A DNA stretch of 64,000 nucleotides from Nitrospirota bacterium. Its GTDB lineage: Bacteria; Nitrospirota; JACRHL01. A model generated the notes under the pieces. That model saw nothing but the letters and a program-made list of their open reading frames with translations. It searched no databases and was not told the DNA's origin. The stretch's first letter is position 1, and each line of letters begins with the position of its first letter. Both the position numbers and the translations under genes were made by a program. Below are positions 18,497 to 45,948 of this stretch, in pieces. The stretch is taken from contig JAOUFN010000002.1 in the NCBI GenBank assembly GCA_029858285.1, positions 77,896-141,895 of the forward strand. Direction: 5' to 3'.

Positions 18497-18582
18497 GGTT
18501 TGTTCCCCGATCCGCCCGATCTGCCGCCATGCGGCGGGTCCCGGCCGTACCCCCCGGAAAAAATCTGTTACCATGGGGCTGC

Positions 18583-19551: not shown

Positions 19552-21767
19552 GTCAGGGGCTGCACATCGCCATGCTCTCGGTGCACGGCCTGATCCGCGC
19601 CGAACACCCGGAACTGGGGTGTGACGCCGACACCGGTGGCCAGATCACCTATGTGCTGGATCTGGCCCGCCACCTCGCCCGCCACCCCAGGGTGACGCGG
19701 GTGGACCTGTTCACCCGTCAGGTTTTCGACCCCGCAGTGTCTCCCGATTACGCCCGCCCCGTCGAACCGCTGGGGGAGGACGGCGCCCGCATCGTGCGCA
19801 TTCCATGCGGACCGCGCAAATACCTGCGCAAGGAGAGCCTGTGGCCCTACCTCGACGAGTTCGTGGACCGCACCGTGAATTTCCTGCGGCGCGAGGGACA
19901 CCCCCCCCACCTGTTTCACAGCCATTACGCCGATGCCGGATATGTGGGGCACGAACTGTCGCGCTTTCTGGGCATCCCCCTGTTCCACACCGGCCACTCT
20001 CTGGGGCGCACCAAGCGTGACCGCCTGCTGGCGTCGGGCGAGGCCGCCGACACCATCGAGCTGCGTTACCGCCTGCGCCAGCGCATCCGGGTGGAGGAGC
20101 GGGTGTTCCAGCACGCCGCGTGCGTCATCTGCTCTACCCGTCAGGAGGCGGACACCCAGTGGGGCATGTACCAGAACGCCTACGATACCGAATTGCTGGT
20201 GCTGCCCCCCGGCACCGACGCCAGCCTGTTTTCGCCCCCTGCTCGCCACTGGCATCCGCCCCCCATCCGCTACGAGGTGGACCAGTTCCTGCGCCACCCG
20301 CGCCGCCCCATGATCCTCGCCCTGGCGCGCGCCGACCCGCGCAAGAACCTGCGGCGGCTGATGCAGGCTTATGCCCGTTCGCCGCGCTTGCAGGACATGG
20401 CCAACCTGGTAATCGTGGCCGGCAACCGCGACGACGCCCGCGACTTGCCCGGCTCCTCCCGCGACGAGATGACCCAGTTGCTGCTCGACGTGGACAAATT
20501 CGAACTGTACGGCAAGGTGGCCCTGCCCAAACACCACGACGTAACGGAAGTGCCGGAACTCTACCGTCTGGCGGTACGGCGGCGCGGCGTGTTCGTGAAT
20601 GCGGCGCTCACGGAACCGTTCGGCCTGACCCTGATCGAGGCCGCCGCCTCCGGCCTGCCGGTGGTGGCCACCCACGACGGCGGCCCGCGCGACATCATTC
20701 ACAACTGCCGCAACGGCCTTCTGGTAGACCCTCTGGACGTCGGCGCCATCGCCCGCGCCATCGAGGAGGTGCTGTCGGATCGTGCCCGCTGGCGGCGTTT
20801 TTCAGAGGCCGGGCGCGCCGGGGTGCGGCGCCACTACACCTGGACCGCACATGTGAACCGCTATGTGCGGCAGGTGGAATCTGCCATCCAGCGCCTGCGC
20901 CCCAAGGGCGTGCCCCGGCGCAAAACCGACGCACAACGGAGGCGCATGCTGACCTTTGACCGATTGCTGGTCTGCGACATCGACAACACCCTGGTGGGCG
21001 ACCCCGTCGCCCTGGAAAAACTGCTCGCGCTGTTGCGCCGGGAGCACCAGCACCTGGGCTTCGGAGTGGCCACCGGGCGCTCCCTGGAACTGACCCTGGA
21101 GGTACTGGAGCAGCACCGCATCCATCGCCCCGACATGCTCATCACCAGTGTCGGCACCGAGATCCACGAAGGGCCCTACCACGATCCGGCGGACGGCTGG
21201 ACCCAGCACATCAGCCACCGCTGGAACCGGGACGCCGTGGTGGCCGAACTGGCCGACGTGGAGGGGCTGGAGTTGCAGGGCGAGGACGGACAACGCCCGT
21301 TCAAGGTCAGCTACTTTGTGGACGGCCTGCGGGCTGCCCGCGACGATGACGCCGATGCGGTGCAGGACGGCGGACGGCGCATTGAGCGGGAGGTGGCCGA
21401 ACGCCTGCGCAAGGCCCGTGTCCGCTTTACCACCGTGTTTTCCCACGGTCAGTTCCTCGACATCCTGCCGCTGCGGGCCAGCAAGGGCAAGGCCATCCGC
21501 TACCTGGCCGACAAGTGGGGAATCCCCTACGACCGCATCCTGGTGGCGGGGGACTCCGGCAACGACGAAGAGATGCTGCGTGGCGACACCCTGGGGGTGG
21601 TGGTGGGCAACTACAGCGCCGAGCTGGAACCCCTGCGGCGCTACTCGCGCGTCCATTTCGCCACCGGACATTACGCCGCTGGTATCCTCGAAGGGATCGC
21701 CCATTACCGCTTTCTGGAACCCCGCCAGGCACCGGCAAATATCCAGCAATCACAGGAGCACTCATGA
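19548..21767 (+). CDS. sps: Sucrose-phosphate synthase (GT4) with C-terminal sucrose-phosphatase-like HAD domain
   Basis: MLSVHGLIR...[20 protein letters not shown]-terminus; GT4 core; C-terminal [15 protein letters not shown] motif I. The start was set at the ATG at 19548 (MSQGLHIAM), coupled to the fructokinase stop. Confidence 0.9.
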
Positions 21768-24169
21768 TCTCCCGCGTCGAAGCCAGTTTTACCCAGCAGC
21801 GCGAAGCCCTCTACCCCCTGTTTCGGCAACTGACCCTGGTGGGCCGTCCGTTCCTGCTGCGCAGCGACATCCTGGACCGGGTGCGGCAGTTCCGCGCCAC
21901 CGATCCCGCAGTGGACGCCTGCCTGTCCGAAGGCCCCATGGAGCAGTGGTTCCGCCAGGTTCAGGAAGCGGTGGTGGGCAACGGCTGGATATGCCTGGGA
22001 GTACGTACCGACATCGCCCGCTGGCGCTACGTGCGGGTGGACCTGGAAGAGATGCACGTCGAATCGGTCACCCCCCAGGCCTACCTTGAGATGAAGGAGC
22101 AGGCGGTGCTCGGCACCCTGCCGTTCGACGCCCACCCGCTGGAGGTGGACACCGGCCCGTTCTCCCACGGCTTTCCAAAAATGACCAAGACCGCCAGCAT
22201 TGGACGCGGCGTGGAGTTCCTCAACCGCCACCTGGCCAGCCAGATGTTCCGTGACCGCGCGGCGGCAAGCGCGCAGATGCTGAATTTTCTCAAGCTGCAC
22301 CACGTGGACGGCCGTTCTCTGATGCTCAACGAGCGCATCGCCGATGCGGCAGCCCTCGCGGACCGGCTGCGGGAGGCGGTGGACCTCGCCCGTTCCAACC
22401 CCCCGGCCACCCCGTGGACGGAACTGGCCGCCCCCCTGCAGGAGATGGGCTTCGAACCCGGCTGGGGCGGCACCGCCGCTCGCGTGCGGGAGACCATGGA
22501 ACTGCTCTCCGACGTGCTGGAGGCACCGGAGCCCGCCGGGCTGGAGCGCTTCCTGTCACGCATCCCGATGATTTTCCGGATCGCCATCATCTCGCCCCAC
22601 GGCTGGTTCGGCCAGAAGGGGGTGCTGGGGCGGCCGGACACCGGCGGCCAGGTGGTATACATTCTGGATCAGGTGCGTGCCCTGGAGGCGCACATGTGCC
22701 GTTGGTTCGCGGATCAGGGGGTGGACGTCACGCCGCGCATCCTGATCGTCACCCGCCTCATCCCGGAGGCGGAAGAAACCACCTGCAACCAGCGCCTGGA
22801 GGCGGTGCACGGCTGCCGCCACGCGGCCATCCTGCGGGTGCCGTTCCGGGAACGCGGCGGCAACGTGGTGCCACACTGGATCAGCCGCTTCTCGGTGTGG
22901 CCCTACCTGGAGCGCTTTGCCCTGGAAACCGAACGGGAACTGCTGGCGGAGATGGGCCACCGCCCGGATCTGGTGATCGGCAACTACTCCGACGGCAACC
23001 TGGTGGCCTCCATCCTTGCCCACCGGTTGGGCGTCACCCAGTGCAACGTGGCCCACGCCCTGGAAAAATCCAAATACGTACTGTCCGACCTGTACTGGCG
23101 CGACAACGAGGAGCCGTACCATTTCTCCACCCAGTTCACCGCCGACCTCATCGCCATGAACACGGCGGATTTCATCATCACCAGCACTTATCAGGAGATC
23201 GCCGGCACCACCGACACCGCCGGACAGTACGAAAGCTACACCCAGTTCACCCTGCCCGGCCTGTACCGGGTGGTGAATGGCATCGACCTGTTCGATCCCA
23301 AGTTCAACATCGTCTCCCCCGGAGCGGCGGCCGATATCTATTTTCCGTGGTTCGAAGGCGAGCGCCGCCTGCCCGGCCTGCAACCGGAACTGGAAACCCT
23401 GCTGTTCGGCAATCCCCCCGACGGGGTGCCGTTCCGGGGCCATTTGGCCCACCCGGAGCGGCCGGTGATCCTGAGCATGGCGCGCCTCGACCGCATCAAA
23501 AACCTGACCGGACTGGTGGACGCCTTTGGCTCCAGCCCACGTCTGCGGGAACAGGCCAATCTGGTGATCATCGGCGGCCGCGACGTCAATCCCGATGCCA
23601 TGAACGACACCGAGGAGGCCGACGAGGCGCGGCGCATGCACGAGTTGATGAGCCAGCACGGACTGGATGACCAGGTGCGCTGGCTGGCGGTGCATCTGGG
23701 CAAGCCCCAGGCGGGAGAGTTGTACCGGATGATCGCCGACCGCCGGGGGGTGTTTGTGCAGCCGGCGCGCTTCGAGGCCTTCGGGCTCACGGTGATCGAG
23801 GCCATGGTGTCCGGGCTGCCCACTTTCGCCACCTGTTATGGCGGCCCGCTGGAGATCATCGAGGACGGCCACAGCGGCTTCCACATCGACCCCATCCACC
23901 CCCGACAGATGGCCGAGCGCGTCGCGGATTTTCTGGAACGCGCCGCCAGTCTGCCGGAGATTTGGCAGGCCGTGTCACGTCAGGGGGTGGAGCGCGTACA
24001 TCAGCGCTACACGTGGGATCTTTATGCCGAGCGCCTGATGACCCTTTCCAAGGTGTACGGGTTCTGGCGCTTCGTCTCCGATCTGGAGCGGCGCGAGACG
24101 GTGCGCTATCTGGAGATGTTCTATCACCTCCAGTACCGCCCCCTGGCAGAGCGCATCGGCGAGAGCTGA
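21764..24169 (+). CDS. sus: Sucrose synthase
   Basis: About 800 aa with the [15 protein letters not shown] motif and GT4 C-terminal half. The start ATG at 21764 (MISRVEAS) overlaps the SPS stop (ATGA), with a CAGGAG ribosome-binding site. Confidence 0.92.
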
Positions 24170-24246: not shown

Positions 24247-25425
24247 TCAGGCCGGGAAACCCAGCGCGGCGTGAGCTTCCCTTTTGCGGTCCACGGCAAA
24301 CGCCTCCAGCCCCACCGGAGGGGCGCGGTCGGTAATCAGGCAGGCCATGGCCTCGGCGGTGGCAGGGGCCAGAATCACCCCGTTGCGATAGTGCCCGGCG
24401 GCCACGAACAGGTTGTCCAGACCCGGCGCCTGCCCCAGAAACGGCAGTCCGTCCGGGGTGCCGGGACGGAAGCCGGTCCACTGCCGCTCCACCTCTGCCT
24501 CCGCCAGACAGGGGGTCATGGACAGCAGCGCCCCGGACAAAAAATGCATGGCCTCCAGTGTGGTGGTGCGGTCGAACCCGGCCATTTCCATGGTGGCCCC
24601 CACCAAAATGCGGCCGTCGGCGCGCGGCACCAGATAGGCGCGGTCGTGCTTGACGATGCGGCGAAGGGTGCCGGGGGCGGTCTTGAGCAGCAGGATCTGC
24701 CCCTTTACCGGTGCCACCGGCAAGGCCAGCCCGGCGTGCTCCCCCAGTTGTCCGCTCCACGCCCCGGCGGCCAGTAGCACCCGTCCGGCGGAAAAACGCC
24801 CGGCGGAGGTCACCACCGCGTTCACCCGCCCTCGGGCGATTTCCCAGCCTGTTACCTCGGCATCGCCGACGACAACCACCCCGGCCGCCCGCGCCGCCGC
24901 CTCGGCGGCTTTTGCCAGACGCGGATTGCGAATCTGCCGCACCTCGGGCCAGAACAGCGCCCCGCACACCGACTCCGCCAGACACGGCTCGATCCCTCGC
25001 GCCGCCACGCCGTCCAGCCGTTGCACCGGCCACCCAAAACGCCCGCTCCACGGCTGGGCTCCCGCCAGGTCCGCCCACTCGGAGGCATGGAACACCGGGA
25101 TCAACAGACCGCTGGCGCGCATCTGCGGGTCCACCCCGGAGACCTCTTTCAAGTCCGCCACCAGCCCCGGATACAGGGCCAGGCTGCGGTTGACCAGGTG
25201 GCTCAGGGCATCCGGATATTTCCAGGGATAGATGGGCGAAAGGATGCCCGCCCCCGCCCAGGACGACTCCTTGAGCGGGCTGCCCCGCTCCAGCACCATC
25301 ACCCTGAGGCCGTCCCGCGCCAGCGCCAGGGCGCTCAACATGCCGATGATACCGCCCCCCACGACCAGCACGTCCGGCGTGGTCTGCGGGTGCGGCGGTG
25401 AAAATGCCTGACTGCTCGCGGCCAC
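24247..25425 (-). CDS. thiO: FAD-dependent glycine oxidase ThiO / D-amino-acid oxidase family
   Basis: DVLVVGGGIIGMLSALALARDGLRVMVLE dinucleotide-binding fold and ThiO-like length. The start was set at the GTG at 25425 (AGGGGGG ribosome-binding site); the ORF-track start at 25626 would add an implausible 67-aa extension. Confidence 0.75.
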   Translation of the reverse strand: MAASSQAFSPPHPQTTPDVLVVGGGIIGMLSALALARDGLRVMVLERGSPLKESSWAGAGILSPIYPWKYPDALSHLVNRSLALYPGLVADLKEVSGVDPQMRASGLLIPVFHASEWADLAGAQPWSGRFGWPVQRLDGVAARGIEPCLAESVCGALFWPEVRQIRNPRLAKAAEAAARAAGVVVVGDAEVTGWEIARGRVNAVVTSAGRFSAGRVLLAAGAWSGQLGEHAGLALPVAPVKGQILLLKTAPGTLRRIVKHDRAYLVPRADGRILVGATMEMAGFDRTTTLEAMHFLSGALLSMTPCLAEAEVERQWTGFRPGTPDGLPFLGQAPGLDNLFVAAGHYRNGVILAPATAEAMACLITDRAPPVGLEAFAVDRKREAHAALGFPA

Positions 25426-25706
25426 TCGCCCCCCTTCGTCAAATAGTTGACGAATCTGTTTTGATGTCCCATTGTCCGCCCTTTTCACCTGTCGGGGCAA
25501 GCCGTTGCGCGGCATCTCTCCCGATTTGACGGAGGACCAAAAAGGCCATTCCGGACCATGGATCGTCAAAACCACGGCGATTTTTCCGTTTCCCGCAGCC
25601 GGGATGGGTCCTTTGGATGCCCGCAAAGTGCCCCATATCGGCGTCGGGATTGTTGAAAAAAGAGCGGCATGGGAGGTCTTTTAAAATTTCTTCCGCGATT
25701 TGGCGG

Positions 25707-25725
25707 AACATGGCACTGGCATTGC
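25707..25725 (+). promoter_or_regulatory. Sigma-54 (-24/-12) promoter: TGGCAC-N5-TTGC
   Basis: GGAACATGGCACTGGCATTGCTC. GG at 25711-12 and GC at 25723-24 have the exact GG-N10-GC spacing, oriented toward flhG-fliA-che. Confidence 0.55.
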
Positions 25726-26039
25726 TCTTATCCCCCGGGAAGGTCGCCACCCCCGCCCCGCCGACACGGCAAAAGGTGTCTGGCGGGGAGCCATCGGGGG
25801 CGGGAACGGCGGCCACGAAAACCACCCGGGTGGAAATTCTCCCGCGTCCCGCAAAACGGTGCCGCACTAGGGGGCGGGTGGTGCAGAACAATTTTTTTTC
25901 GGGGTACCTGCCACGACCGCGGAGGACGGCGCCCCAACGGGATGGTCATAAGGATGCGACAGCCCGAAGCACACATCAATATCGACGACGACATCGTCAC
26001 CGGCGTGACGCTGGTCGTCAGCCGCACGGGCATTCGGCC

Positions 26040-26918
26040 GTGAGCCGTCACCCGGACAAACGCCCCCGCGCACCCCGCGCCGCCGGTGCAGGCGTCGCTG
26101 CGGAGCGTCCGGCTTTGGGGCGGGTGCTGGCGGTGACCTCCGGCAAGGGCGGGGTGGGCAAGACCGGCATTGCCCTCAACCTGTCCGCCTGCCTCGCCGC
26201 GCGCGGCAACCGGGTGTTGCTGCTGGATGGCGATCTGGGGCTGGGCAATGTGGATGTAATGGTCGGGCTCACGCCGACGCGCTCCCTCGATCAGGTGTTG
26301 AACGGCGGCTTTTCCCTGGCGGATGTCATTCTGGAAGGTCCGGCGGGGTTGCGCATCATTCCTGCCGGCACCGGCGTGGCGCGCCTCGCCCGCCTCGGCA
26401 AGGACGGTCAGCGGACCTTGCTGGCGCAGGTGGCGGCCCTGACCCCACCGCCGGACTACCTGATTGTGGACACCAGTTCCGGCATCGGCGACAACGTGCG
26501 CTTTCTGGCCGCGTGTGCCCAGGAGGTGCTGGTGGTGACCACCCCCGAGCCCACCGCCGTAACCGACGCCTACGCCCTGATGAAGGTGTTGGCGCGCACC
26601 CAGGGCACGCGCCGTTTTCGGCTGGTGGTGAATCTGGCCGAGACCGAGGCCGTGGCGCTGGAGGTTTACCACCGCCTGAGCGTGGTGGCCGATCGTTTTC
26701 TGGGGGTGGGGCTGGATTTGGCGGGATTTGTGCCGCCGGACCGCGCCGTGCCTGCGGCGGTGCAGCGCCGCAACGGGGTATTGACCACCGGTCACGCCGC
26801 CGGCGCCATGCGGCGCCTGGCGGAGACCGTGGCCGGATGGCGCCCCGGAGAGCCGACCCACGGGGGATTGCAGTTGTTCGTAAATCAAATGGCGGAGCCA
26901 GGGGATTCCGCTTCCTGA
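26040..26918 (+). CDS. flhG: Flagellar number/placement ATPase FlhG (FleN, MinD/ParA family)
   Basis: Deviant Walker A VTSGKGGVGKTGIALNL and MinD-like core. The start was chosen at the GTG at 26040; upstream of it the track ORF (from 25617) is low-complexity and Arg-rich. Confidence 0.75.
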   Translation: MSRHPDKRPRAPRAAGAGVAAERPALGRVLAVTSGKGGVGKTGIALNLSACLAARGNRVLLLDGDLGLGNVDVMVGLTPTRSLDQVLNGGFSLADVILEGPAGLRIIPAGTGVARLARLGKDGQRTLLAQVAALTPPPDYLIVDTSSGIGDNVRFLAACAQEVLVVTTPEPTAVTDAYALMKVLARTQGTRRFRLVVNLAETEAVALEVYHRLSVVADRFLGVGLDLAGFVPPDRAVPAAVQRRNGVLTTGHAAGAMRRLAETVAGWRPGEPTHGGLQLFVNQMAEPGDSAS

Positions 26919-26919
26919 C

Positions 26920-27798
26920 ATGCAGGAGGAGCACAACGTGGACAACGCCCAACCTCGCGACTACGGCGTCGGGGTATCCCATATCGCCCTGGAGGTCCAG
27001 GAGCGACTGATCGCGGAGTTCGCCCCCAAGATCCGCATCATGGCCAACCGGCTGGCCACGCGCCTGCCGGCCCACCTGGACGTGGATGACATCATCAACG
27101 TCGGGGTGATCGGCTTGATGGACGCGATGACCAAGTACGACCCGAACCGGGAAACCCTGTTCAAGACCTACGCGGAGTTTCGCATCCGGGGCGCCATGCT
27201 GGACGAGATCCGCGCCATGGACTGGGTGCCGCGCAGCATCCGCGAAAAAGCCGCCCGCCTGCGCGGCGCCTATCAGTCTCTGGAGCAGAAGCTGGGCCGC
27301 CCGGCCTCCGAGGAGGAGGTGTCCGCCGCCCTCGGCGTGGACCTGCCGACGCTGCACAAACTGTTGCAGCAGGTCTCCCACACCGCAGTGCTGAGCCTGG
27401 ACGATCTGGGGGTGGATTCGGACCGCGAGATGAACATCCTCGACTGCATCGCCCAGGAAGGGGTTCCCGATCCCCTCGCCAACCTGATCCAGCAGGACAT
27501 GTGGGATCTGCTGGGCGAGGCCATCGAGCACCTGCCCAAAAAGGAACGTCTGGTGGTCACCCTCTATTACTACGAGGAGCTCACCATGCGCGAAATCGGC
27601 AACGTATTGAACATTACCGAGTCCCGCGTATCCCAGTTGCACAGCCAGGCAATCCTGCGCATCAAGGGCAAAATAGCCTCGGTTCGCAGCAGTCGCGGGC
27701 GGCAGTCCGTCCGCAGCAAAGGTTCTCTCAAGGATGCCGGCCACGGAACCGAGAAGAACCGCAGGTATGTTCTCAGCACCCCTTCCGGGCGTGCGTGA
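26920..27798 (+). CDS. fliA: Flagellar sigma factor sigma-28 (FliA)
   Basis: Sigma-70 region 2 ([20 protein letters not shown]) and region 4 ([29 protein letters not shown]), directly after flhG. Confidence 0.9.
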
Positions 27799-27844: not shown

Positions 27845-28210
27845 ATGAAGTTTTTGGTTGTCGATGATTTTTCGACCATGCGCCGCATTGTCCGCAACAT
27901 TCTCAAGCAGATCGGTTACACCGATGTGGAGGAAGCGGAGAACGGCAAGGACGCGCTGGACAAGCTGAAGGCGAGTCACTACGACTTTATTATCTCCGAC
28001 TGGAACATGCCCACCATGACCGGCCTGGAGCTGCTCAAGGCGGTGCGCGAGGATTCGGGCCTTAAAGGGACCCCGTTCCTGATGGTGACCGCCGAGTCCA
28101 AGCAGGAAAACGTCGTGGAAGCCATTCAGGCGGGGGTCAGCAACTACATCGTGAAGCCGTTCACAGCCGACGTTCTGAAGGGCAAGATCGACAAGATTCT
28201 GGCCTCCTGA
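27845..28210 (+). CDS. cheY: Chemotaxis response regulator CheY
   Basis: [16 protein letters not shown]...[10 protein letters not shown] receiver domain of 121 aa. The ATG at 27845 is preceded by a GGAAAGAGGG ribosome-binding site. Confidence 0.9.
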
Positions 28211-28251
28211 GTCCCCTCCCCAGTCCAACGTAACCACGGGAGAGGCACACC

Positions 28252-29604
28252 ATGGCGGAACATCGTTCCACGGTCCGCGGCGGTACGACCATGCGACAAA
28301 TGGTCGGCTTCCGGCTGGGAACCGAAAAATTCGCCATCGATATCGGCAAGATCCACGAAATCATCAAGCCGCGTCCGGTCACCATGCTGCCCGACATACC
28401 CGAGGGGTATTCCGGGATGATCCAGTTGCGTGACCGCGTGGTGGTGATGGCCGATCTGCACCTGCGTTTCGGTCTTCCCCCCCACCAGGGAGGCAAGGAC
28501 GCGCGCATCATCGTGCTGGAGCGCCCCGGGCAACCGGTGGGGATTCTGGTGGATGCGGTGTCCGAAGTGGTGCGCTTTTCCCCCCAGATGATCGAATCGC
28601 CACCCGATTTCAGCAACGGCGCCCGGGTGGCCTGCATCGACGGAGTGGGCAAGCTGGGTGGCGAACTGCTCACCATCCTCAATCTGGACGTGCTGTTCAC
28701 CCAGTCCGACATCGTCCTCGCCGATCTGGGCCGGAAAAAGGCCGCCAAGGCGGCGGCAACACCGGCCAAGGCCGACCGGCCCGATGCCAACGCCACTGCG
28801 GAGCAGCCGGAAAAACACCCCGCGGAGACCGAGCCTGCCGGGCCGGAGTCCGCATCCATGACCGAACCCGAAACCGAGACCGCCGCAATGCCGGAGTCTC
28901 CATCATCCGATCCCGACTGGGCACCGCTGGCGGCCACCCCGCTGCCGCCGTCCGCGCCGGGGGAACCCACGGACGAAGCAATCACGAGCGAACCGGGAGC
29001 CGACATCATGAACGACGACCTTTATCAGGACCTGGGACATCTGGCCCGGTACATCAACAGGGCCCACCAGTCCTTCAACGCCTCCCTTCAGGATGACGAG
29101 CCGATTCGCGTCAAGGCCAAAGACCTGCCTACCGCCACCGACATCCTGCAACAGGTAACGCTGGATACCGAAAACGCCACCATGCGCATCATGTCCGGGG
29201 TGGAAGAGGCCAGTGGCTCCCTGAACAAACTGCGCGGCATCATCGACGAACTCGACGCGGCCATCCCCGCCTCCAGCGAGGAGCGCGCCAAGGCCGGCGA
29301 CATCATCGAGCGCATGCGCGACGAGATCACCGGCGTGGAATCCCTCCAGGACCAGACCCTGATCACCCTCTCCTTCCAGGACCTCACCGGCCAGAAGATC
29401 AAGCAGGTGATGGCGCTGATGATGGAGATCGAGGAGCGCATCCTCGGCATGGTGGTGAAATTCGGTGTTGGCCGCGCCGACGAGGCCGCGCAGGAAGTCG
29501 CCACGCAGGACGTGGCGGAGCGCATCGACGACGTGCGCGCCAAGCCGAACCCCGGCCTGCGCCAGGACCGCGTGGACAGCCTGCTGGCGGATTTCGGGTT
29601 CTAA
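28252..29604 (+). CDS. cheZ: CheW-domain / CheZ phosphatase fusion protein
   Basis: Residues ~1-150 form a CheW-like domain (FRLGTEKFAIDIGKIHEII...GILVDAVSEV). A Pro/Glu/Ala/Thr-rich linker follows. Residues ~240-450 form a full CheZ domain (SFQDLTGQKIKQVMALMMEIEERIL and the C-terminal CheY-binding tail DSLLADFGF). All of this sits in one uninterrupted frame. Confidence 0.8.
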   Translation: MAEHRSTVRGGTTMRQMVGFRLGTEKFAIDIGKIHEIIKPRPVTMLPDIPEGYSGMIQLRDRVVVMADLHLRFGLPPHQGGKDARIIVLERPGQPVGILVDAVSEVVRFSPQMIESPPDFSNGARVACIDGVGKLGGELLTILNLDVLFTQSDIVLADLGRKKAAKAAATPAKADRPDANATAEQPEKHPAETEPAGPESASMTEPETETAAMPESPSSDPDWAPLAATPLPPSAPGEPTDEAITSEPGADIMNDDLYQDLGHLARYINRAHQSFNASLQDDEPIRVKAKDLPTATDILQQVTLDTENATMRIMSGVEEASGSLNKLRGIIDELDAAIPASSEERAKAGDIIERMRDEITGVESLQDQTLITLSFQDLTGQKIKQVMALMMEIEERILGMVVKFGVGRADEAAQEVATQDVAERIDDVRAKPNPGLRQDRVDSLLADFGF

Positions 29605-29679: not shown

Positions 29680-31629
29680 ATGAGACCCGACATTCCAGAG
29701 GACATGGCGGAGATCTTCGACGAGTTTCTCGTCGAAACGACCGAGTCCCTGGTGGACCTGGATCAGCACTTCCTCGCCCTCGAGTCCAACCCCGGCGACA
29801 CCGGGCTGCTCAACCAGATTTTTCGCACCGTCCACAGCATCAAGGGCGGCGCCGGCTTTCTGGGTCTCAACGACCTGGTGTCGGTGGCCCACGGCTCCGA
29901 AAACATCCTCAACAAATTGCGTAACGGTGAACTCGGCGTCACCCCCGAGATCATCGACATCGTCCTCCAGTCGGTGGATGTCATCAAGGCGATCCTGGCC
30001 CAATGCCGGGGCGAGGATGTCGGCCAGATGGACATCCCCAACATCGTCCAGAAACTGGAGTTGATGCTCCAGTTCGCCGAGGAAATGGGCTCCCACGCGG
30101 CCACCGCCGCCACCACCGCGCTGCAGGACGCCCCGCAGGGGGAAACTCAGGGGGAAACCCAGGGCGACATTCAGGACAAAAACCGGGACGACGCCCAGTC
30201 GGCGCCCCCGGCTCACCCCCGGTCCCCGGCCTCGGCCGCCCCGCCAGACGACGACTTTGCGGCGGCACTGGTGGAGACTCCAGCCGCCCCCGCCCCCGCC
30301 CCCGCCGCACCGGCGGCCACGGCAGTCTCCACCGAAGAGATTGCCGCCACCGCAGCCCCGGCCACGGCACCGCGCATGGAGATGGAAACCACCATCCGGG
30401 TGGACACCTCGCGCCTGGACAATGTGATGAACCTGGTGGGCGAACTGGTGCTGTGCCGCAACCGTACCCTCAAGCTGGTGTCGGAGCTCGATACCCGCTA
30501 CGAAAACGATCCCGCCCTGCGTGCCCTGGTCACCACCGCCGGACAGATGAATCTGGTCACCACCGACCTGCAACTGTCGGTGATGAAGACGCGCATGCAG
30601 CCGGTGGGCAAGATTTTCCAGAAATTCCCGCGCATGGTGCGCGACATTTCGCGCAAGCTGGGCAAGCAGATCGACCTGGTCATCTCCGGCGAAGAAACCG
30701 AACTCGACAAGTCCATGCTCGAAGAACTGGGCGACCCTCTGGTGCACTTGGTGCGCAATTCCGTGGACCACGGCATCGAAACCGCCGAAGAGCGCGAACA
30801 GTCCGGCAAACCGGCCCTGGGGATCATCCAGTTGTCCGCCGAACACGATGGCGCTTCCATCCTGATCCGCATCCAGGACGACGGGGCCGGCATCAACCAC
30901 ACCCGCATCCGCGCCAAGGTGATCGAGAAGGGGCTGATGCCCGCCGATCAGGTGACGGCCATGTCCGACCGCGAAGCGCTCAACCTGATCTTCCTGCCGG
31001 GACTGTCCACCAAGGACCAGATTTCCGACCTGTCGGGCCGTGGCGTGGGCATGGACGTGGTGCTCAGCAACATCCGCAAGGTGGGTGGCATCATCGACGT
31101 GGAATCCGAACCCGGCAAGGGCACCTCCATCACCCTGTCATTGCCCCTCACCATCGCCATCATCCCGACCCTGATGGTGCAGGTGGACACGCGCCTGTTT
31201 GCCATCCCCCTGTCGTCCATCGTCGAAACCCTGCGCGTCGGCCGCGACGAAATCCAGATGGTGGATGGCCGACCGGTCATCCGCCTGCGCGACCGCATCC
31301 TGCCGGTCACCCCCCTGGGCGACCTGTTTGGAGTCGACAATTCCCGGATCGCCTACGCCGGCATGGAATTCGCCGGGGCGGAACACACCGGCGCCCAGGT
31401 GGCCGCCGTCAACCCGGACCCGGATCGCCTCAACATCGTGGTAGTGGCGCTGGCAGAAAAGAAAATCGGCCTTGTGGTAGACGACCTGCAACAACAGGAA
31501 GAGGTGGTGATTAAATCGCTGGGGGACTACCTCGGCAGCGTTCCCGGCATCTCCGGAGCCACCATCAACGGCGAGGGTCAGGTAGTGCTGATCCTGGATG
31601 TGGGCACCGTAATCGACCTGATGCATTGA
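29680..31629 (+). CDS. cheA: Chemotaxis histidine kinase CheA
   Basis: Hpt domain (HSIKGGAGFLGL); dimerisation region; HATPase (GRGVGMDVV, GKGTSITLSLPLT); C-terminal CheW-like domain. Confidence 0.95.
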   Translation: MRPDIPEDMAEIFDEFLVETTESLVDLDQHFLALESNPGDTGLLNQIFRTVHSIKGGAGFLGLNDLVSVAHGSENILNKLRNGELGVTPEIIDIVLQSVDVIKAILAQCRGEDVGQMDIPNIVQKLELMLQFAEEMGSHAATAATTALQDAPQGETQGETQGDIQDKNRDDAQSAPPAHPRSPASAAPPDDDFAAALVETPAAPAPAPAAPAATAVSTEEIAATAAPATAPRMEMETTIRVDTSRLDNVMNLVGELVLCRNRTLKLVSELDTRYENDPALRALVTTAGQMNLVTTDLQLSVMKTRMQPVGKIFQKFPRMVRDISRKLGKQIDLVISGEETELDKSMLEELGDPLVHLVRNSVDHGIETAEEREQSGKPALGIIQLSAEHDGASILIRIQDDGAGINHTRIRAKVIEKGLMPADQVTAMSDREALNLIFLPGLSTKDQISDLSGRGVGMDVVLSNIRKVGGIIDVESEPGKGTSITLSLPLTIAIIPTLMVQVDTRLFAIPLSSIVETLRVGRDEIQMVDGRPVIRLRDRILPVTPLGDLFGVDNSRIAYAGMEFAGAEHTGAQVAAVNPDPDRLNIVVVALAEKKIGLVVDDLQQQEEVVIKSLGDYLGSVPGISGATINGEGQVVLILDVGTVIDLMH

Positions 31630-31633
31630 AGGC

Positions 31634-32806
31634 ATGGGCATGAATTCCATCCGCGTACTGGTGATCGACGACTCCGCATTCATGCGCACGGTAATCTGCC
31701 AGATGCTGGCGGGCGCGCCGGACATCCGCGTGGTCGGCCAGGCCACCAACGGCAAGGAAGGCCTGCGCATGGCCAAGGAGTTGAAGCCGGACGTCATCAC
31801 CCTGGATGTGGAAATGCCGGTGCTGGGCGGGCTTGAGATGCTCACCATCCTGATGCGCACCAACCCCACCCCGGTCATCATGCTCAGCAGCCTCACCCAG
31901 GAGGGGGCGGAGGTCACCGTCAAGGCGCTGCAACTGGGGGCGGTGGATTACCTGCCAAAGAACAACAGTGGCGGCGCCATGGGAATGCGCCGCATTGCGC
32001 CGCAACTGATCGACAAGGTGCGCGCCGTGGGTACCGGGGAAACCAGCCGGGCCATCACCGAATCGCGCCAGGCAATGCGCGAATTCGTCGACCCCAGCGG
32101 CGCGCCCCGCCGCACTGCGGAACGGCTTTCCCGCCCCGGCGATATTCCGGTGGTGGCCATCGGCTGCTCCACCGGAGGACCGGCGGCACTGTGCGAGGTG
32201 ATTCCGCACCTGCCGGAAGAGCTGGGGGCGGCAGTGGTGATCTCGCAGCACATGTCGGCCACCTTCACCCGCGCCCTGGCGGAACGGCTGGACCGCCTGA
32301 GCCCCACCTTCACGGTCCGTGAGGCCGTCGACGGCGACCGCCTGGAACCCGGCGTGGCCATTGTCGCCAAGGGCGGGCGTCACCTGACCATCGACTGTAT
32401 GCAGGACGGCTCGCTGATCTGCCGCCTGGCCTCCACCCCCGAAATGCCCACGCAACCGTCGGTGGACCTGTTGTTCGAATCCCTGGCGCGGGCCTGCCCC
32501 GAGCGTACCCTGGGCGTGGTGCTGACCGGCATGGGCAGCGACGGAGCAAGTGGCGCACACAAGCTGGTGGAGCGCGGGGGCGGTCTGATCACCCAGGCCC
32601 AGACCGGCTGTCTGGTTTACGGCATGCCTCGTGCGGTAGTGGCCACGGGGGTAGCCAGCAACGTCGCCCCGCTGGGGCGCATCGCCAAGGAAATTTACCT
32701 GTGGTCGCGCACCCAGCGCGATCTCATCGCCGCATCCAGGACCATACCCGGGGCCACGTCCAGGATCACACCCAGGGTCACACCCAGGGTCACACCCAGG
32801 GGATAA
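31634..32806 (+). CDS. cheB: Chemotaxis protein-glutamate methylesterase CheB (receiver plus methylesterase) with a repeat-encoded C-terminal tail
   Basis: Receiver domain (RVLVIDDSAFMR), catalytic GCSTGGPAAL and the HMSATFT methylesterase motif. The last ~25 aa (...ITPRVTPRVTPRG) are encoded by the 12-bp tandem repeat. Confidence 0.92.
   Translation: MGMNSIRVLVIDDSAFMRTVICQMLAGAPDIRVVGQATNGKEGLRMAKELKPDVITLDVEMPVLGGLEMLTILMRTNPTPVIMLSSLTQEGAEVTVKALQLGAVDYLPKNNSGGAMGMRRIAPQLIDKVRAVGTGETSRAITESRQAMREFVDPSGAPRRTAERLSRPGDIPVVAIGCSTGGPAALCEVIPHLPEELGAAVVISQHMSATFTRALAERLDRLSPTFTVREAVDGDRLEPGVAIVAKGGRHLTIDCMQDGSLICRLASTPEMPTQPSVDLLFESLARACPERTLGVVLTGMGSDGASGAHKLVERGGGLITQAQTGCLVYGMPRAVVATGVASNVAPLGRIAKEIYLWSRTQRDLIAASRTIPGATSRITPRVTPRVTPRG
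32766..32801. repeat. Tandem repeat, 3 x 12-bp unit TCACACCCAGGG at the 3' end of cheB
   Basis: Three perfect copies at 32766-32801 immediately before the cheB stop (32804-32806) and the cheR ATG (32811). Confidence 0.95.
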
Positions 32807-32810
32807 ACGG

Positions 32811-33680
32811 ATGTCCGACGAGCGCCCCATAGACGCAGGACCCGTCCTCAGCGCCGAGGCCTTCCAGGTGTTGCAGGAACTGGTGCGCGACGCCTGCGGC
32901 ATTATGATCCCCGACAACCGCAACAGCGCCCTGGAGGCCCGCCTGGCCGAGCAGATGGCCAAACTTGGCCTCGACAGCTACCGCGACTATCTCGACCGCC
33001 TGCAACGGACACCTTACTCCAGCCCCCTCTGGCAGGAGTTGTTCCACCATATCAGCACCAACGAGACCTATTTTTTCCGCAACCAGTCCCAGAACCAGGT
33101 GTTTGCCGAGCACCTGTTGCCCCGGGTGCTGAAGCGCCAGGAGGGGCGGCTGTTCAAGCGCCTCAAGGTTTGGAGCGCCGCCTGCGCCACGGGTGAGGAG
33201 GCCTACACCCTGGCCATCCAGATCCTGGACGCCCTGGGCAGCAAGGCGGCCGACTGGCAGCCGCAGGTAGTCGGCACCGACATCGACGCCGAGGCCATCC
33301 GCGTGGCGGAGGGCGGCACCTATTCCGGGCGCTCCCTGCAATACGTCCCGCATCGGGTGCTGAAGCGCCACTTCGACAAGGACGGCAACACCTACAAGGT
33401 GGACGAGAAGGTCCGCCAGATGGTGTCTTTCAAGGTGGTGAACTTCGCCAGCGAGGCGGAAATGGCCACACAAATTAATATGGACGTCATCTTCTGCCGA
33501 AACGTACTTATCTACTTTGATGGGGAGTTCCGGAAGAGGGTGGTGGATCGTCTGTATCACAGTTTGAAACCGGGTGGCTATCTGGTGATCGGCCATTCGG
33601 AGTCCCTGCGTGGAGTCCATACCGGATTCGACGCCGTGCAGTTTCCGGGAACACATGTCTATCAACGTCCGGAGGAGTAG
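32811..33680 (+). CDS. cheR: Chemotaxis protein methyltransferase CheR
   Basis: N-terminal helical domain followed by the SAM-methyltransferase domain (LKVWSAACATGEEAYTLA, VIFCRNVLIYFD). Confidence 0.93.
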   Translation: MSDERPIDAGPVLSAEAFQVLQELVRDACGIMIPDNRNSALEARLAEQMAKLGLDSYRDYLDRLQRTPYSSPLWQELFHHISTNETYFFRNQSQNQVFAEHLLPRVLKRQEGRLFKRLKVWSAACATGEEAYTLAIQILDALGSKAADWQPQVVGTDIDAEAIRVAEGGTYSGRSLQYVPHRVLKRHFDKDGNTYKVDEKVRQMVSFKVVNFASEAEMATQINMDVIFCRNVLIYFDGEFRKRVVDRLYHSLKPGGYLVIGHSESLRGVHTGFDAVQFPGTHVYQRPEE

Positions 33681-33686
33681 GGTCCG

Positions 33687-35378
33687 ATGAATGGCAAAGC
33701 CTCACATCTGAGTATCCATGCGCGCATCCTGTTGGGAATGTGTGCGGTAGTCCTGCTTTTTTCCATTGCCGGGACGTACTCCATCGTCGCCTCCGGCCAG
33801 TCATCGCGCATGCTGACCAGCATGGCGAAGACGGAATTTCCCCTGCTGCAGGATGTTTATAACCTGACGCGCACTTTCTCCGAGGTGGACACCCAACTCG
33901 TCAGTGCCGCCGCCATGGCCGACCCCGGCAGGCTCAAGGCGGCCAACGAGTCCGCCGTGCAGTTCCGCGCCCTGCTCACCCAGATGGGTGAGCGCCCGGG
34001 TGCCGATCCGGAACGTCTGGCCAATATTGGTGAGCGCTTCGACGCCACCTTGCGCACCGGGCTGGAAATGGCCCAAAGCGCCCTGGACGGACGCTCCGAA
34101 CGGTCGGGGGTGCTGGCCAGCCGCTACGCGGCCAGCAGCCAGGAAATGCAGGGGGTGCTGCGCAACCACCTGCAGGCCACCCAGGCGCACTTCCAGCTTG
34201 CCCTCACCAAGACCAGTCTGGACACCGGGCGCGCCCGTTCCGCGATGATCTGGGGGGCTCTGGCCGTAGTGGTCATCGGCCTGTTGCTCGGCACCACCCT
34301 GGCGCGCAGCATCGTGGCGCCGATCCGCGCCATCTCCGGGGCGATCCGCGAAATCGCCCAGGGGCGCGGCGACCTGACCAGCCGCGTGCATCACAACACC
34401 ACCGATGAACTCGGAGATCTGACCCGCAATTTCAACGAGTTGCTGGACAAGCTCGAATCCATTATCTATCAGGTGTCGGTGACTTCCGCAGATATTTCCC
34501 ACTCCACCGAGACCATCGCGGTCAAGAACACCCAGATGTCCGAGGGGGCGCAGAACCAGTCCTCGCAGGCACTCAAAATCGCCGCCGCCATGGAGCAGAT
34601 GAACGCCACCGTATCCGAGGTGAGCAAAAACTCTGCCGTCGCGGCCGATTCCGCCCGTGAGGCCATGAACATCGCCACCAAGGGCGGCGAGGTGGTGCAG
34701 CAGACCATCATGGGCATGCAGGTGCTGGCGGAGCGCGTGACGCAGGCCGCCAACACCATCCAGACCCTGGGCACCAACACCGACAAGATCGGCGAAATTG
34801 TGCTGGTGATCGACGAGATTGCCGACCAGACCAACCTGCTCGCCCTCAACGCCGCCATCGAGGCGGCGCGCGCCGGCGATCAGGGACGCGGCTTCTCGGT
34901 GGTGGCAGACGAGGTACGCAAGCTGGCCGAGCGCACCACCCTGGCCACGCGCGAAATCGCCACCATGATCTCTGCCATCCAGAAGGAAACCAACAGCGTG
35001 GTCGAGATGATGAACTCCAGCCGTGCCGAGGCGGAAAAGGAGACCACCCTGGTCAACGAATCCGGCGACGCGCTGGCCAACATCATCGACGTTATCGCCA
35101 GCGTGACCGACATGGTGGAGCAGATCGCCACGGCGGCGCGGGAGCAGGCCATCGCCACCGACGAGATCACCACCAACATCGAGGGCATCGCCACCGTCAC
35201 CGACGACACCTCCAAGGGGGTGCAACAGTCGGCGGACGCCGCCACCCAGCTCAACCGGCTGGCCTCCGACCTGAAGACCATGGTGGGACAGTTCAATGTG
35301 CGCGGGACCGCCGCGGCCAAGGCGGTTCAGGATTCGGGTCGCCCGGGCAAGTCCCCGGCGCGGGTGGCTGTGGGGTAA
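33687..35378 (+). CDS. Methyl-accepting chemotaxis protein (2 TM, HAMP, MCP signalling domain)
   Basis: N-terminal TM ([15 protein letters not shown]), a second TM followed by HAMP, and the highly conserved signalling-domain hairpin [36 protein letters not shown]. Confidence 0.92.
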
Positions 35379-35381: not shown

Positions 35382-35912
35382 ATGGAAACCGCAACGACCA
35401 CCCGACACGACGACGCCGCTCCGGCGTCCCGCACCGGTGCCCATCCAGACACCGGCGTGCCGGACCAGGAGGCCCAGGACTCCCTTCAGCTGATCACGTT
35501 TTCACTGGGGGAAGAGCTGTTCGCCCTGGATATTCTGAAAGTGCAGGAAATCATCCGCGTGTCGCCCATCACGCCCGTCCCCCACACCCCCGACTTCGTG
35601 GACGGCGTCCTGACCCTGCGCGGCAAGATCGTGCCGGTCATCGACCTGCGTACCCGCCTGAGCCTGTCCCGCACCGGACACGGTATCTCCACCCGGGTGG
35701 TGGTGACCAACGTGCGCGGCCAGTTACTGGGGTTGGTGGTGGACCGGGTGCACGAAGTGGCGCGGCTGCCCCTGAACAAAATAGAGTCCGCCGCCACCGC
35801 TGGCGCAGCAGTGCATGACTATGTGCACGGAGTGGGGCGGCTGGGGGCCCGCCTGGTAACCCTGCTGGACATCGAAGCCATCAGTGTTCCCCTGGCCGCC
35901 CACGCGGCATAA
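35382..35912 (+). CDS. cheW: Chemotaxis coupling protein CheW
   Basis: QLITFSLGEELFALDILKVQEIIRV...GKIVPVIDLR CheW domain, 176 aa. Confidence 0.9.
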   Translation: METATTTRHDDAAPASRTGAHPDTGVPDQEAQDSLQLITFSLGEELFALDILKVQEIIRVSPITPVPHTPDFVDGVLTLRGKIVPVIDLRTRLSLSRTGHGISTRVVVTNVRGQLLGLVVDRVHEVARLPLNKIESAATAGAAVHDYVHGVGRLGARLVTLLDIEAISVPLAAHAA

Positions 35913-35935: not shown

Positions 35936-36199
35936 CTAGTGGGTGTGGCGCGACCCGGGAAAGTGCAGCACCTTGCCGTCGCTCGGGACGGTCGGAACTT
36001 CCGGGCGCGGCCCGGAGAGTTCCTTGAGCACCCGGGTGGAAACTTCCATCAACTCGGTGGCGGCCTTGAGCGTCAGGTTGAACTGCTGCAGGGCCTCCTC
36101 GTTGCGACCATCGCGGCGCAGTTCCTTGAAGCGCTCGTAATGCTGCTGCAGGGCTTCCTTCATCTCGCGAATCTGTCTGACCTTGTCGGTTTCCGGCAT
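35936..36199 (-). CDS. Hypothetical small coiled-coil protein (87 aa)
   Basis: Internal ATG of ORF 35936..36334; helical charged sequence KVRQIREMKEALQQHYERFKELRRDGRNEEALQQFNLTLKAATELMEVSTRVLKEL. No recognisable family, and convergent with cheW. Confidence 0.3.
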   Translation of the reverse strand: MPETDKVRQIREMKEALQQHYERFKELRRDGRNEEALQQFNLTLKAATELMEVSTRVLKELSGPRPEVPTVPSDGKVLHFPGSRHTH

Positions 36200-36676
36200 T
36201 GGCTTTGTCACCTTTCGTCCCGTTTTGGCCTGCGCCCGGTTGCCCCCGCACCGTGCAGGGAACTTCCTCGGCCGGAACCGCATCGGGCTGTTGGCACACA
36301 TCGGGCACACACTCTGGCGGATATCCCGCCGCAAGCGACACCCCTACACTCTACCGCCGTTTCCGGCATGAATTCCCGCCCCCGTGGAGAATTCCCCTCC
36401 CGGTGGCAGCTGCAAACCCAATGCCGTCACCGGTCACCCTCGGAAAAACTGGGATTTCCTGTTCCGATTGGCTATGATGGGGATTCGGGCACGATCTGTC
36501 GTCGGCTTGCCGTCGGTGGTGGCTTTTCCGAAAAACGGTAGAAAAGTATCTCATGTGGGGACGGGCGCCCGGGCCGGATGGCTTCGGCGGCGGCCCGCCA
36601 ATACAGGTTCCGGCCAGGCATCTCCGTTGACGAAATTTCGTCGGTGGGGCCCGGTTGCGGAGGGGGAGGCGCACGG

Positions 36677-37810
36677 ATGATCCGGTCAATACCTGCCACC
36701 AGGGCCGTCCTGGTCCCCCTGCTGTGTGCAGGTGTGGTCTGGCTGGCTGGCTCCGGCGCGGCGCAGGCTTTCGAGTTCAACGGCTTCGGCGACATGACCT
36801 ACCGGGCGCGCGGAGCCTCGAACGGCGGAGGCGCGAACAACGGCTTTGCCCTTGGCCAGCTCGACCTGTACGCCACCAAGGAGGTCACCGACCGCACCGA
36901 CGTGCTGATAGAGATCGTCGCCGAGGACCGCCAGCAGGGCGGCTTCGAGGTAGACCTGGAGCGCCTGCAGTTCACCTACACCCTGAGCAACGTGCACCGG
37001 CTGCGCGCCGGCCGTTTTCACACCATCCTCGGCTACTGGGGCCACGCCTATCACCACGGCGCCCACCTGCAAACCACCATTTACCGGCCCTTCTTTCTGG
37101 AATTCGAGGACCGCGGCGGCGCGCTGCCGGCCCACGCCGTGGGCCTGTGGTGGTCGGGCCGCTGGGCCTCTGCGGCGGGCCGCCTGGAAACCTCGGCCAT
37201 GGTCCACAACGGCAGCACCGTGATCTGGAACTCCGCTGCTGGTTCCCCAACCGGGACGCTTGAGACCTCCACCGGGGGCGACTCCGACAACCATAAATCC
37301 GTGGTGTTTGCCATCAATTTCCGCCCCTCCGCGCTGGAGGGTCTGGAGGTCGGCGCATCGGGACAGAGCGGCGCAGTGCGGGTGACAGACACCGCAATTC
37401 CCCTTTCCCCCACCGACAAGGACGTGCGCGAGGTCATCACCGCGGCCCACGTCGCCTACCCCGGAGAACAGGTGGAATTTATCGCCGAGCGCTACGATTG
37501 GCACCATACCCGCGGGGGTACCCAGACCAGTGCCAACGCCTGGTATCTTCAGGCCGGTGGACGCGTCGGCAAGGGCTTTTTGTACATGCGTTACGCCACC
37601 ATGGACGCGGAGAAGGACGACTACTTCGACGGTATCGGTTTTACCACCTTCTCCTCCTCTCTTGCGGGGCGGCGCCGCACCATCGGCACCGCCGGAGTGC
37701 GCCTGGACATTCATTACCTGACCGCCCTCAAGCTGGAACTCAGCCAGGTGGACGACGATCAGGACGGCCAGTACGAAACCGGGACGGTCCAGTGGACCTT
37801 CGCGTTTTGA
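36677..37810 (+). CDS. Putative outer-membrane beta-barrel porin
   Basis: Signal peptide MIRSIPATRAVLVPLLCAGVVWLAGSGAAQA (start moved to 36677). Alternating amphipathic beta-strands and a C-terminal aromatic-terminated signature ...GTVQWTFAF. Confidence 0.55.
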   Translation: MIRSIPATRAVLVPLLCAGVVWLAGSGAAQAFEFNGFGDMTYRARGASNGGGANNGFALGQLDLYATKEVTDRTDVLIEIVAEDRQQGGFEVDLERLQFTYTLSNVHRLRAGRFHTILGYWGHAYHHGAHLQTTIYRPFFLEFEDRGGALPAHAVGLWWSGRWASAAGRLETSAMVHNGSTVIWNSAAGSPTGTLETSTGGDSDNHKSVVFAINFRPSALEGLEVGASGQSGAVRVTDTAIPLSPTDKDVREVITAAHVAYPGEQVEFIAERYDWHHTRGGTQTSANAWYLQAGGRVGKGFLYMRYATMDAEKDDYFDGIGFTTFSSSLAGRRRTIGTAGVRLDIHYLTALKLELSQVDDDQDGQYETGTVQWTFAF

Positions 37811-44399: not shown

Positions 44400-44405
44400 G
44401 GCGGG

Positions 44406-45104
44406 TCAGGCTGGCAGCAAGGCTGCCACCTCGGTGGTGGACAGGCGGCGGAAGGTGCGTCCGCGCAAGGCCCGGTCCAGCAGGGCGACCTCGAAATCGG
44501 CGGCGGACAGGCGACCGTTTGCCCCGGCCCCGGCTCCGGAACTACCCAGCACCTCGCGGCACAACGACAGGGAGGCCCGCACGTCGGCCACGCGGGAAAA
44601 ATCCCGGTCCAGGGCCACGCGCACACGGTCGGCGTCACCGCCCACCACGGCGTAATCGCCCTCGCCGATAATGTTGCCGTCGAAGGAGACGCGGTAGATG
44701 GTGTCGTTTTCCGGGCTTGCTCCCACTTCGGCGACCACCAGTTCCACCTCCATCGGCTTGACCTCGTGGGCGAACACCTCGCCCAGCATGTGGGAATAGC
44801 CGTTGGCCAGGGATTTGGCGGTGACGTCTTCACGGCTGTAGGAGTAGCCGGTGACATCGGCGTGGCGGATGCCGGCCTTGCGCAGGGATTCAAACTCGCT
44901 GAAGCGACCGGCCCCGGCAAAGCCGATGCGATCGTAAATTTCGGAGATCTTGTTGAGGGCGGAACCGGGGTTGTGGGCCACGAACAGCACCCCATCGGTA
45001 GTACGCATGACCACGGTGGCACGGCCCCGGCTGATGCCCTTTTTGGCGAACTCCGCCTTGTCCTGCATCAATTGTTCGGGGGAAACGTAATACGGCATGG
45101 CCAT
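44406..45104 (-). CDS. prcA: Proteasome alpha subunit PrcA
   Basis: MAMPYYVSPEQLMQDKAEFAKKGISRG matches the actinobacterial-type PrcA N-terminus. Confidence 0.9.
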   Translation of the reverse strand: MAMPYYVSPEQLMQDKAEFAKKGISRGRATVVMRTTDGVLFVAHNPGSALNKISEIYDRIGFAGAGRFSEFESLRKAGIRHADVTGYSYSREDVTAKSLANGYSHMLGEVFAHEVKPMEVELVVAEVGASPENDTIYRVSFDGNIIGEGDYAVVGGDADRVRVALDRDFSRVADVRASLSLCREVLGSSGAGAGANGRLSAADFEVALLDRALRGRTFRRLSTTEVAALLPA

Positions 45105-45107
45105 GGC

Positions 45108-45929: not shown

Positions 45930-45948
45930 GTTGTACTCCCGTCCGTGG

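Follow-up and report, generated by a model that had tools for sequence, protein, structure and literature searches.

The gene at 28252-29604 on the + strand of the window, the 64,000-nucleotide stretch of contig JAOUFN010000002.1 from a Nitrospirota bacterium that was analysed here, encodes a chemotaxis protein in which an N-terminal CheW-like domain is joined through a linker to a complete CheZ phosphatase domain. The fusion is one genuine gene, located in the flagellar che operon of this high-GC organism (the window is 66% GC), and we regard the gene itself as real beyond reasonable doubt. It is probable, judging from the conservation of array-contact residues and by analogy with other CheW-like proteins, that its CheW domain anchors the phosphatase in the lattice of receptors, CheA and CheW. 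The features of the gene are as follows:

28252-29604, + strand: cheW-cheZ fusion gene, a single open reading frame (ORF) of 450 amino acids plus stop, with an ATG start and two Pfam domains in frame
28238-28245, + strand: Shine-Dalgarno-like sequence GGGAGAGG, 6 nt 5' of the fusion-gene ATG, read from the sequence; putative ribosome-binding site of the gene
28297-28704, + strand: CheW-like domain, residues 16-151 (PF01584, E=3e-33; phmmer matches to the CheW structures 2qdl and 2ho9/6s1k; superposition of an AlphaFold2 model)
28705-29016, + strand: linker, residues 152-255, acidic, low-complexity and predicted to be disordered, with a short helix (152-169) directly after the CheW domain
29017-29601, + strand: complete CheZ domain, residues 256-450 (PF04344), with a predicted N-terminal helix, long helical hairpin and C-terminal helix
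29374-29394, + strand: catalytic motif FQDLTGQ (D377, Q381), aligned to the identical motif of E. coli CheZ
29563-29601, + strand: predicted C-terminal peptide QDRVDSLLADFGF for binding phosphorylated CheY (CheY-P), which aligns to the E. coli CheZ C-terminus QDQVDDLLDSLGF

The initial annotation of this DNA, made from the letters alone, had proposed a single frame of 450 codons, and one + strand ORF runs from the ATG to the stop with neither an internal stop nor a change of frame; it starts 41 nt after the stop codon of cheY. The domains that it had claimed are also borne out by profile searches. The PF01584 match to residues 16-151 scores 114.8 bits against a cut-off of 23.5 and covers positions 1-136 of the 138 in the profile, and the PF04344 match scores 70.1 bits (E=3.2e-19, cut-off 30.7) and covers positions 2-203 of 203. 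The acidic linker between them has 104 residues, 74% of which are P, A, E, T, S or D, with a net charge of -14. Both signature elements that the annotation had read in the CheZ half are in place: the catalytic helix SFQDLTGQKIKQ at residues 374-385, and the C-terminal end DSLLADFGF. No match to the receiver domain PF00072 is present in the fusion protein in the Pfam scan. The NCBIfam CheW and CheZ equivalog models match the respective halves, both far under their equivalog cut-offs (48 against 257 for the CheZ model PRK11166); since these thresholds are not reached, both halves are, on their profile scores, family members and not enteric-type orthologues or equivalogs.

The CheZ half is aligned by phmmer with residues 21-214 of E. 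coli CheZ (1KMI) at E ~2e-4, with FQDLTGQ identical and the C-terminal peptides aligned. D377 and Q381 align with D143 and Q147 of the E. coli motif, the catalytic residues of that enzyme. A monomer model was made with AlphaFold2 from an alignment of 32 fusion sequences and consists of a beta-rich domain (residues 17-148, predicted local distance difference test score, pLDDT, ~78), the short helix at 152-169, a disordered stretch (174-251, pLDDT <50) and helices at 251-281, 295-337, 344-430 and 438-447 (pLDDT up to 93), the last of these within the candidate CheY-P-binding peptide. The helices at 295-337 and 344-430 are candidates for the long hairpin that builds the dimeric four-helix bundle of CheZ. 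CheW in solved structures has a beta fold of two subdomains, and in a Foldseek search of the model against the PDB the top matches are CheW chains (2qdl, 6s1k_C, 8c5v_E and 2ch4_W), with target-normalised template-modelling (TM) scores of 0.68-0.74.

The fusion is widespread. About 35 protein clusters bear PF01584 and PF04344 together in the protein search (P0001-P0032, P0034 and P0035), including a public protein identical to the fusion product (P0001, from a Nitrospirota metagenome-assembled genome, MAG, and named "protein phosphatase CheZ"), 32 more two-domain clusters at 40-57% identity and 2 more at ~30%; the database names of the cluster members are inconsistent, being either "CheZ" or "CheW". 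Loci were also drawn from a genome scan with one genome per GTDB species (at least 80 loci, with the window's closest relatives not among them) and searched with hidden Markov models (HMMs) made from the two halves of the alignment. Both domains lie in one stop-free frame in at least 41 GTDB species representatives, and a single-ORF fusion with CheW before CheZ and adjoining cheA is present in at least 43 loci, namely those of the 41 species plus L001/L002, which represent a 57%-identical relative. Among the 41 species listed, 39 belong to Nitrospirota lineages, including Thermodesulfovibrionales, Nitrospiraceae, a Nitrospira enrichment and the cultured Thermodesulfovibrio sp. N1 (L052); the other two are a Methylococcaceae MAG (L006) and one unclassified. 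The Methylococcaceae fusion (VEPB01000206.1, MAG MnB_9; also P0035 and P0039) is of the type found in the large clade described below, in a cheA-[WZ]-cheB context on a 7.3-kb contig, and reflects either horizontal transfer or a mis-binned contig. A profile search of 1.84 billion representatives gave no usable fusion count, its top 150 matches being dominated by proteins with three to five CheW domains; about six full-length fusions are visible in it (P0021, P0002, P0060, P0071, P0139 and P0154).

Both domains are complete and under purifying selection. Mean pairwise identity across the fusion proteins is 66% for CheW and 61% for CheZ but 25% for the linker, which ranges from 33 to 104 aa across the clade; when 32 fusion proteins are aligned, both domains contain invariant residues and the linker varies freely. 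F375, Q376, D377, L378, T379, G380 and Q381 are invariant in all 32, as are Q438, V441, D442 and L445 of the C-terminal peptide, with A446, F448, G449 and F450 nearly so. The fused proteins form the clade of the window protein (the window clade) and a large Thermodesulfovibrionales/Nitrospiraceae clade (loci L005-L064), in which the spacer between W and Z is near-constant, mostly 90-97 aa (range 80-100), and is similar to the N-terminal extension found in an unfused CheZ (L053; compare L047). The large-clade spacer is probably a structured CheZ N-terminal region and not a free linker; in this it differs from the acidic linker of the window clade, which is variable.

For the CheW half, E. coli CheW numbering was transferred to the CheW domains of 43 fused and 28 free proteins, with residue roles in the array interfaces taken from a 2026 review (PMC13098124). 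The fused domains, like free CheWs, conserve the receptor contacts I33, V36, E38, I39, V105, S106 and V108, together with R62, G57, G99 and G133, and the equivalents of the E. coli receptor contacts in the window protein are I31, I34, E36, I37, V103, S104, V106 and R60. These receptor-contact residues are conserved in 5/5 window-clade and 37-38/38 large-clade fused domains, and they are the best-conserved part of the fused domain. At interface 2 and the CheW/CheW ring, F122 is kept, and R117 is replaced by Glu in the fused and the free CheWs of these organisms alike. In E. coli, CheA-short brings CheZ to the arrays by binding two aromatic residues at the tip of the helical hairpin (W97/F98, printed as Phe-97/Trp-98 in PMC7750401). 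The CheZ half of the fusion lacks this determinant; its tip reads ELDAAIPASSEE (AIPASS), and F, W and Y are all absent between residues 276 and 374.

The conserved receptor-binding groove, the missing CheA-short determinant and the precedents for array insertion through CheW-like domains (ParP, CheV and the CheW-CheR-like protein) together support docking. The fused CheW domain would take CheW positions either in the rings of the CheA P5 domain and CheW or in CheW-only rings, and the CheZ dimer would hang on flexible tethers just beneath the array, where CheA makes CheY-P. Tethering of this kind would replace the CheA-short-mediated recruitment of E. coli and would co-localise kinase and phosphatase, whose gene, we note, sits between that of the substrate (cheY) and that of the kinase (cheA). 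E. coli CheZ (1KMI) is a dimer; because a dimeric CheZ would carry two CheW domains per molecule, two lattice sites could be occupied.

Several points weigh against docking. It is put forward from residue conservation and analogy alone. At CheA-P5 interface 1, where the E. coli residues T46, V58, N60, G63, I65 and P67 were compared, the window protein keeps T44 (E. coli T46) and has a conservative V63 (E. coli I65), but N60, G63 and P67 are replaced by Q58, D61 and V65 (in the 28423-28446 region). An aspartate stands in place of G63 in 3/5 window-clade members, whereas this glycine is kept in 28/28 free CheWs and the large cheA-[WZ] clade is canonical at the interface (N in 37/38, G in 37/38 and P in 32/38). 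This suggests that the CheA-P5 contact of the window clade may be altered, or else compensated by co-evolution in the cognate CheA. A free CheW persists beside the fusion, both in the window and in the 14 distinct relatives with long enough flanks, so the fused domain need not serve as the sole coupling protein. The overall confidence of the AlphaFold2 model is low (predicted TM score, pTM, 0.35), and CheZ (1KMI) was not returned when the full model was searched against the PDB with Foldseek, probably because a helical hairpin discriminates only weakly; the assignment of this half to CheZ is based on Pfam and the sequence alignment with 1KMI.

The fused domain might do more than tether, either as a working coupling protein that tunes the phosphatase by receptor state, giving reciprocal control of kinase and phosphatase, or through a CheZ dimer that cross-links two CheW sites and shapes the array, much as the CheR-like domain does in Treponema. 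The full conservation of the receptor-binding groove and the two W domains that a CheZ dimer would offer are consistent with such a role; the T. denticola CheW-CheR-like protein is required for array order (PMC7666581), CheV illustrates that a CheW fusion can be regulatory (PMC12691637), and the fused W domains group apart from the free CheWs encoded at the same loci, which implies specialisation. However, the disordered linker of the window clade, at 33-104 aa and variable, is ill-suited to pass on a conformational change, and a free CheW is retained beside the fusion. We think a regulatory or structural role in the lattice unlikely, and offer it as a proposal. More doubtful again is that the fusion is an integral lattice subunit, in which the dimer would bridge two CheW positions (e.g. 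in CheW-only rings) and phosphatase output would be set by receptor state or array geometry. If this were true, Nitrospirota arrays would control kinase and phosphatase reciprocally from one lattice, an arrangement that to our knowledge is known in no studied chemotaxis system.

The CheW domain could also bind a partner outside the membrane array, such as soluble CheA through P5 only, a cytoplasmic receptor cluster, or another protein of the che cluster, and the fusion would then not be integrated into the lattice. The divergence of the interface-1 positions in the window clade (Q58, D61, V65) would fit such a partner, as would the uncharacterised conserved unk410 genes of the same clusters (described below). 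We nevertheless consider it quite unlikely, given that no part of the domain is better conserved than the receptor-contact residues, that the methyl-accepting chemotaxis protein (MCP) of the operon is of the transmembrane type with a HAMP domain, and that the larger fusion clade is canonical at interface 1.

Tandem translation, in which an internal start at M253 would also give free CheZ and so mirror CheA-long and CheA-short, is very improbable. An ATG at residue 253 has GGGAG 8-9 nt upstream, and the closest relative has an ATG with GGAGGA ~10 residues before its CheZ domain, but these Shine-Dalgarno-like strings stem from the Glu and Gly codons of the acidic linker, M253 is not conserved in the alignment, and the candidate start positions are not conserved among loci, 13/42 of which have none; an internal start for free CheZ is rejected on these grounds.

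That a frameshift, misassembly or chance read-through joined separate cheW and cheZ genes is hardly credible and is rejected, since, although long spurious ORFs are common at 66% GC and one locus (L041) has W and Z in separate overlapping frames, the in-frame architecture recurs in about 35 clusters and at least 41 species from unrelated assemblies with differing linker lengths, the cultured Thermodesulfovibrio sp. N1 among them, the linker has no stop codon and no conserved second ribosome-binding or start signal, and the sole split case also has a split cheA. The initial annotation had raised a merging frameshift as a concern, and comparison with homologues finds the same frame across many independent assemblies. 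In L041 (CAWCLI010000004.1, 8121-11184) cheA and cheW-cheZ both lie in overlapping broken frames, likely the product of assembly indel errors in that MAG and not genuinely split genes.

The surrounding operon reads flhG-fliA-cheY-[cheW/Z]-cheA-cheB-cheR-mcp-cheW and is followed by two genes without a family match. The genes other than the fusion, assigned with Pfam, are:

25617-27798, + strand: flhG/minD-like ATPase gene and fliA (sigma-28), the operon head, in the same order in L001/L002
27845-28210, + strand: cheY, directly upstream of the fusion gene (PF00072, E=1.3e-31), encoding the putative substrate response regulator
29680-31629, + strand: cheA, with Hpt, dimerisation, HATPase and P5/CheW-like domains (the last at residues 498-645)
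31634-35378, + strand: cheB, cheR and one MCP gene (the last at 33687-35378)
35382-35912, + strand: free single-domain cheW (PF01584, E=8.7e-40)

The free CheW and the CheW domain of CheA itself, both of which the initial annotation had listed, are the only W matches in the window besides the fusion, and the window has one CheZ only. The 57%-identical relative (L001/L002) has the same gene order, including the sucrose-metabolism genes upstream. Two gene orders are found among the fusion loci: cheY-[WZ]-cheA-cheB in the window clade, L003 and L045, and cheR-cheY-cheY-cheA-[WZ]-cheB in the large Thermodesulfovibrionales/Nitrospiraceae clade. In the window clade, fliA and the fusion are separated by one cheY (27845-28210 in the window); most other fusion clusters have two CheY paralogues upstream (cheR-cheY-cheY). 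All 15 fusion loci with long enough flanks (14 distinct relatives, the L001 and L002 proteins being the same) have a single-domain cheW besides the fusion, as does the window, and the P5 domain is kept in 53/55 CheA ORFs longer than 450 aa among the loci. Unfused CheZ genes (~195-245 aa) fill the same slot in similar clusters of some Deltaproteobacteria MAGs and Nitrospiria bins, and the CheW-CheZ fusion is therefore a derived state. In crude neighbour-joining trees (midpoint-rooted, BLOSUM distances), the fused W domains fall in clades of their own, apart from the free CheWs of the same loci, and there are at least two divergent fusion groups with differing gene order, compatible with one or several fusion events.

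No P2 (CheY-binding) domain was detected by Pfam in the product of cheA (29680-31629); between its Hpt and dimerisation domains, residues ~102-236 form a low-complexity, Pro/Ala-rich stretch of ~135 aa with a GETQGETQGD repeat. Without P2, the C-terminal peptide of an array-tethered CheZ could be the sole CheY-docking element at the array. The che operon closes with two + strand ORFs at 35939-36541 and 36578-37810 (unk200 and unk410), neither with a Pfam or NCBIfam match. The latter, a 410-aa ORF, has homologues within three other che clusters, those of L001, L003 and L045; in L003 and L045 the homologue comes immediately after cheB. To judge from this, unk410 is a conserved gene of the che clusters of these Nitrospirota, as yet uncharacterised. 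At the operon head, the flhG/minD-like ORF (25617-26918, +) has 433 aa, its ATPase domain does not begin until residue 169, and the ORF overlaps the opposite-strand oxidoreductase gene (24247-25626) at that gene's end; the L001 homologue is called at 293 aa, and the true flhG start is probably well downstream of 25617.

The remaining parts of the window include several recognisable systems. Upstream of the che operon is a sucrose block (18529-24169, +) with a PfkB kinase, a sucrose-phosphate synthase fused to a sucrose-phosphate phosphatase, and a sucrose synthase, which is syntenic in the 57%-identical relative (L001/L002, 487-6041); between the block and flhG an FAD-dependent oxidoreductase (DAO) gene lies on the opposite strand (24247-25626, -). 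A heavy-metal P-type ATPase gene with two HMA domains (7523-10021) and two adjoining radical-SAM genes (12215-14422), one with a BATS domain (BioB/ThiH-like), are ordinary housekeeping context. A Pup-proteasome cluster (43026-49519, -) comprises two genes of the Pup-ligase family (PafA/Dop type), one or more genes for proteasome subunits, and a gene for an AAA ATPase of the ARC/Mpa type that carries proteasomal OB domains; the Pup-proteasome system is known in Actinobacteria and Nitrospirota.

The initial annotation suggested that the architecture might be undescribed, and would have it uncommon and not novel if it were already common in databases. The latter is the case, with ~35 clusters, at least 41 GTDB species and an identical protein already deposited, and with the listing of the architecture by Vass, Branscum, Bourret and Foster (2022; bioRxiv 10.1101/2022.05.07.491035), who name CheW-CheZ once among rare CheW architectures and then leave it out of their analysis. 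As for function, in the searchable literature we found no study of a CheW-CheZ protein beyond that mention, and the string "CheW-CheZ" is absent. The fusion is thus catalogued, automatically annotated and widespread in one phylum, uncommon and not novel, and it appears to be functionally unexamined. The general picture of chemotaxis is unchanged by it, and with the architecture already catalogued its value is moderate. Where the CheY-P phosphatase sits with respect to the kinase has an effect on how uniformly CheY-P spreads through the cell (PMC7750401), and the known placements of CheZ are all indirect, through CheA-short in enterics, ChePep in Helicobacter and an unidentified partner in Azorhizobium. 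A covalent CheW-CheZ would be the simplest placement imaginable, and as a lineage-wide natural experiment in Nitrospirota, including a cultured Thermodesulfovibrio, it offers a direct test of the idea that kinase and phosphatase are co-localised. The fusion also probes the tolerance of arrays for non-canonical CheW-type subunits, and it corrects annotation pipelines that name the protein "CheZ" or "CheW".

The fusion protein shares features with several known systems. It resembles the CheZ of E. coli and Salmonella (PF04344; 1KMI) in its full profile match, identical FQDLTGQ, homologous C-terminal peptide and predicted helical hairpin, and is presumably the same enzyme, likewise co-localised with the kinase; it differs in the added N-terminal CheW domain and linker, the lack of the aromatic tip and the low identity, and its recruitment would be covalent and direct and not through a CheA isoform. 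With CheW (PF01584; 2HO9, 6S1K, 2QDL) it shares fold, length, the receptor contacts and R62, G57, G99 and G133, but it has an enzyme attached, the window clade has other residues in place of N60, G63 and P67, and the fused domains do not share clades with the free CheWs of their own operons.

Other proteins use CheW-like domains in comparable ways. In CheV, as proposed for the fusion, an N-terminal CheW-like domain brings a second chemotaxis module to the array (PMC12691637), this C-terminal module being a phosphorylatable receiver in CheV and a phosphatase in the fusion. ParP of Vibrio and Pseudomonas intercalates a non-core protein through MCP and CheA contacts of a CheW-like domain (PMC5706961), but this domain is C-terminal and ParP tethers arrays to the polar ParC anchor, whereas the fusion would bring an enzyme and has the reverse domain order. 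The CheW-CheR-like protein of spirochaete F2 systems is likewise a lineage-wide fusion of an N-terminal CheW to a domain of the che pathway, and that of T. denticola is a demonstrated array component (PMC7666581); its CheR-like domain has lost the catalytic residues and has a structural role, in contrast to the invariant CheZ motif of the fusion. Finally, the CheZ-HP/ChePep system of Helicobacter and the CheZ of Azorhizobium also place CheZ at the pole without CheA-short (PMC7750401), but through a separate partner (ChePep) or the N-terminal helix of CheZ and not through a fused CheW.

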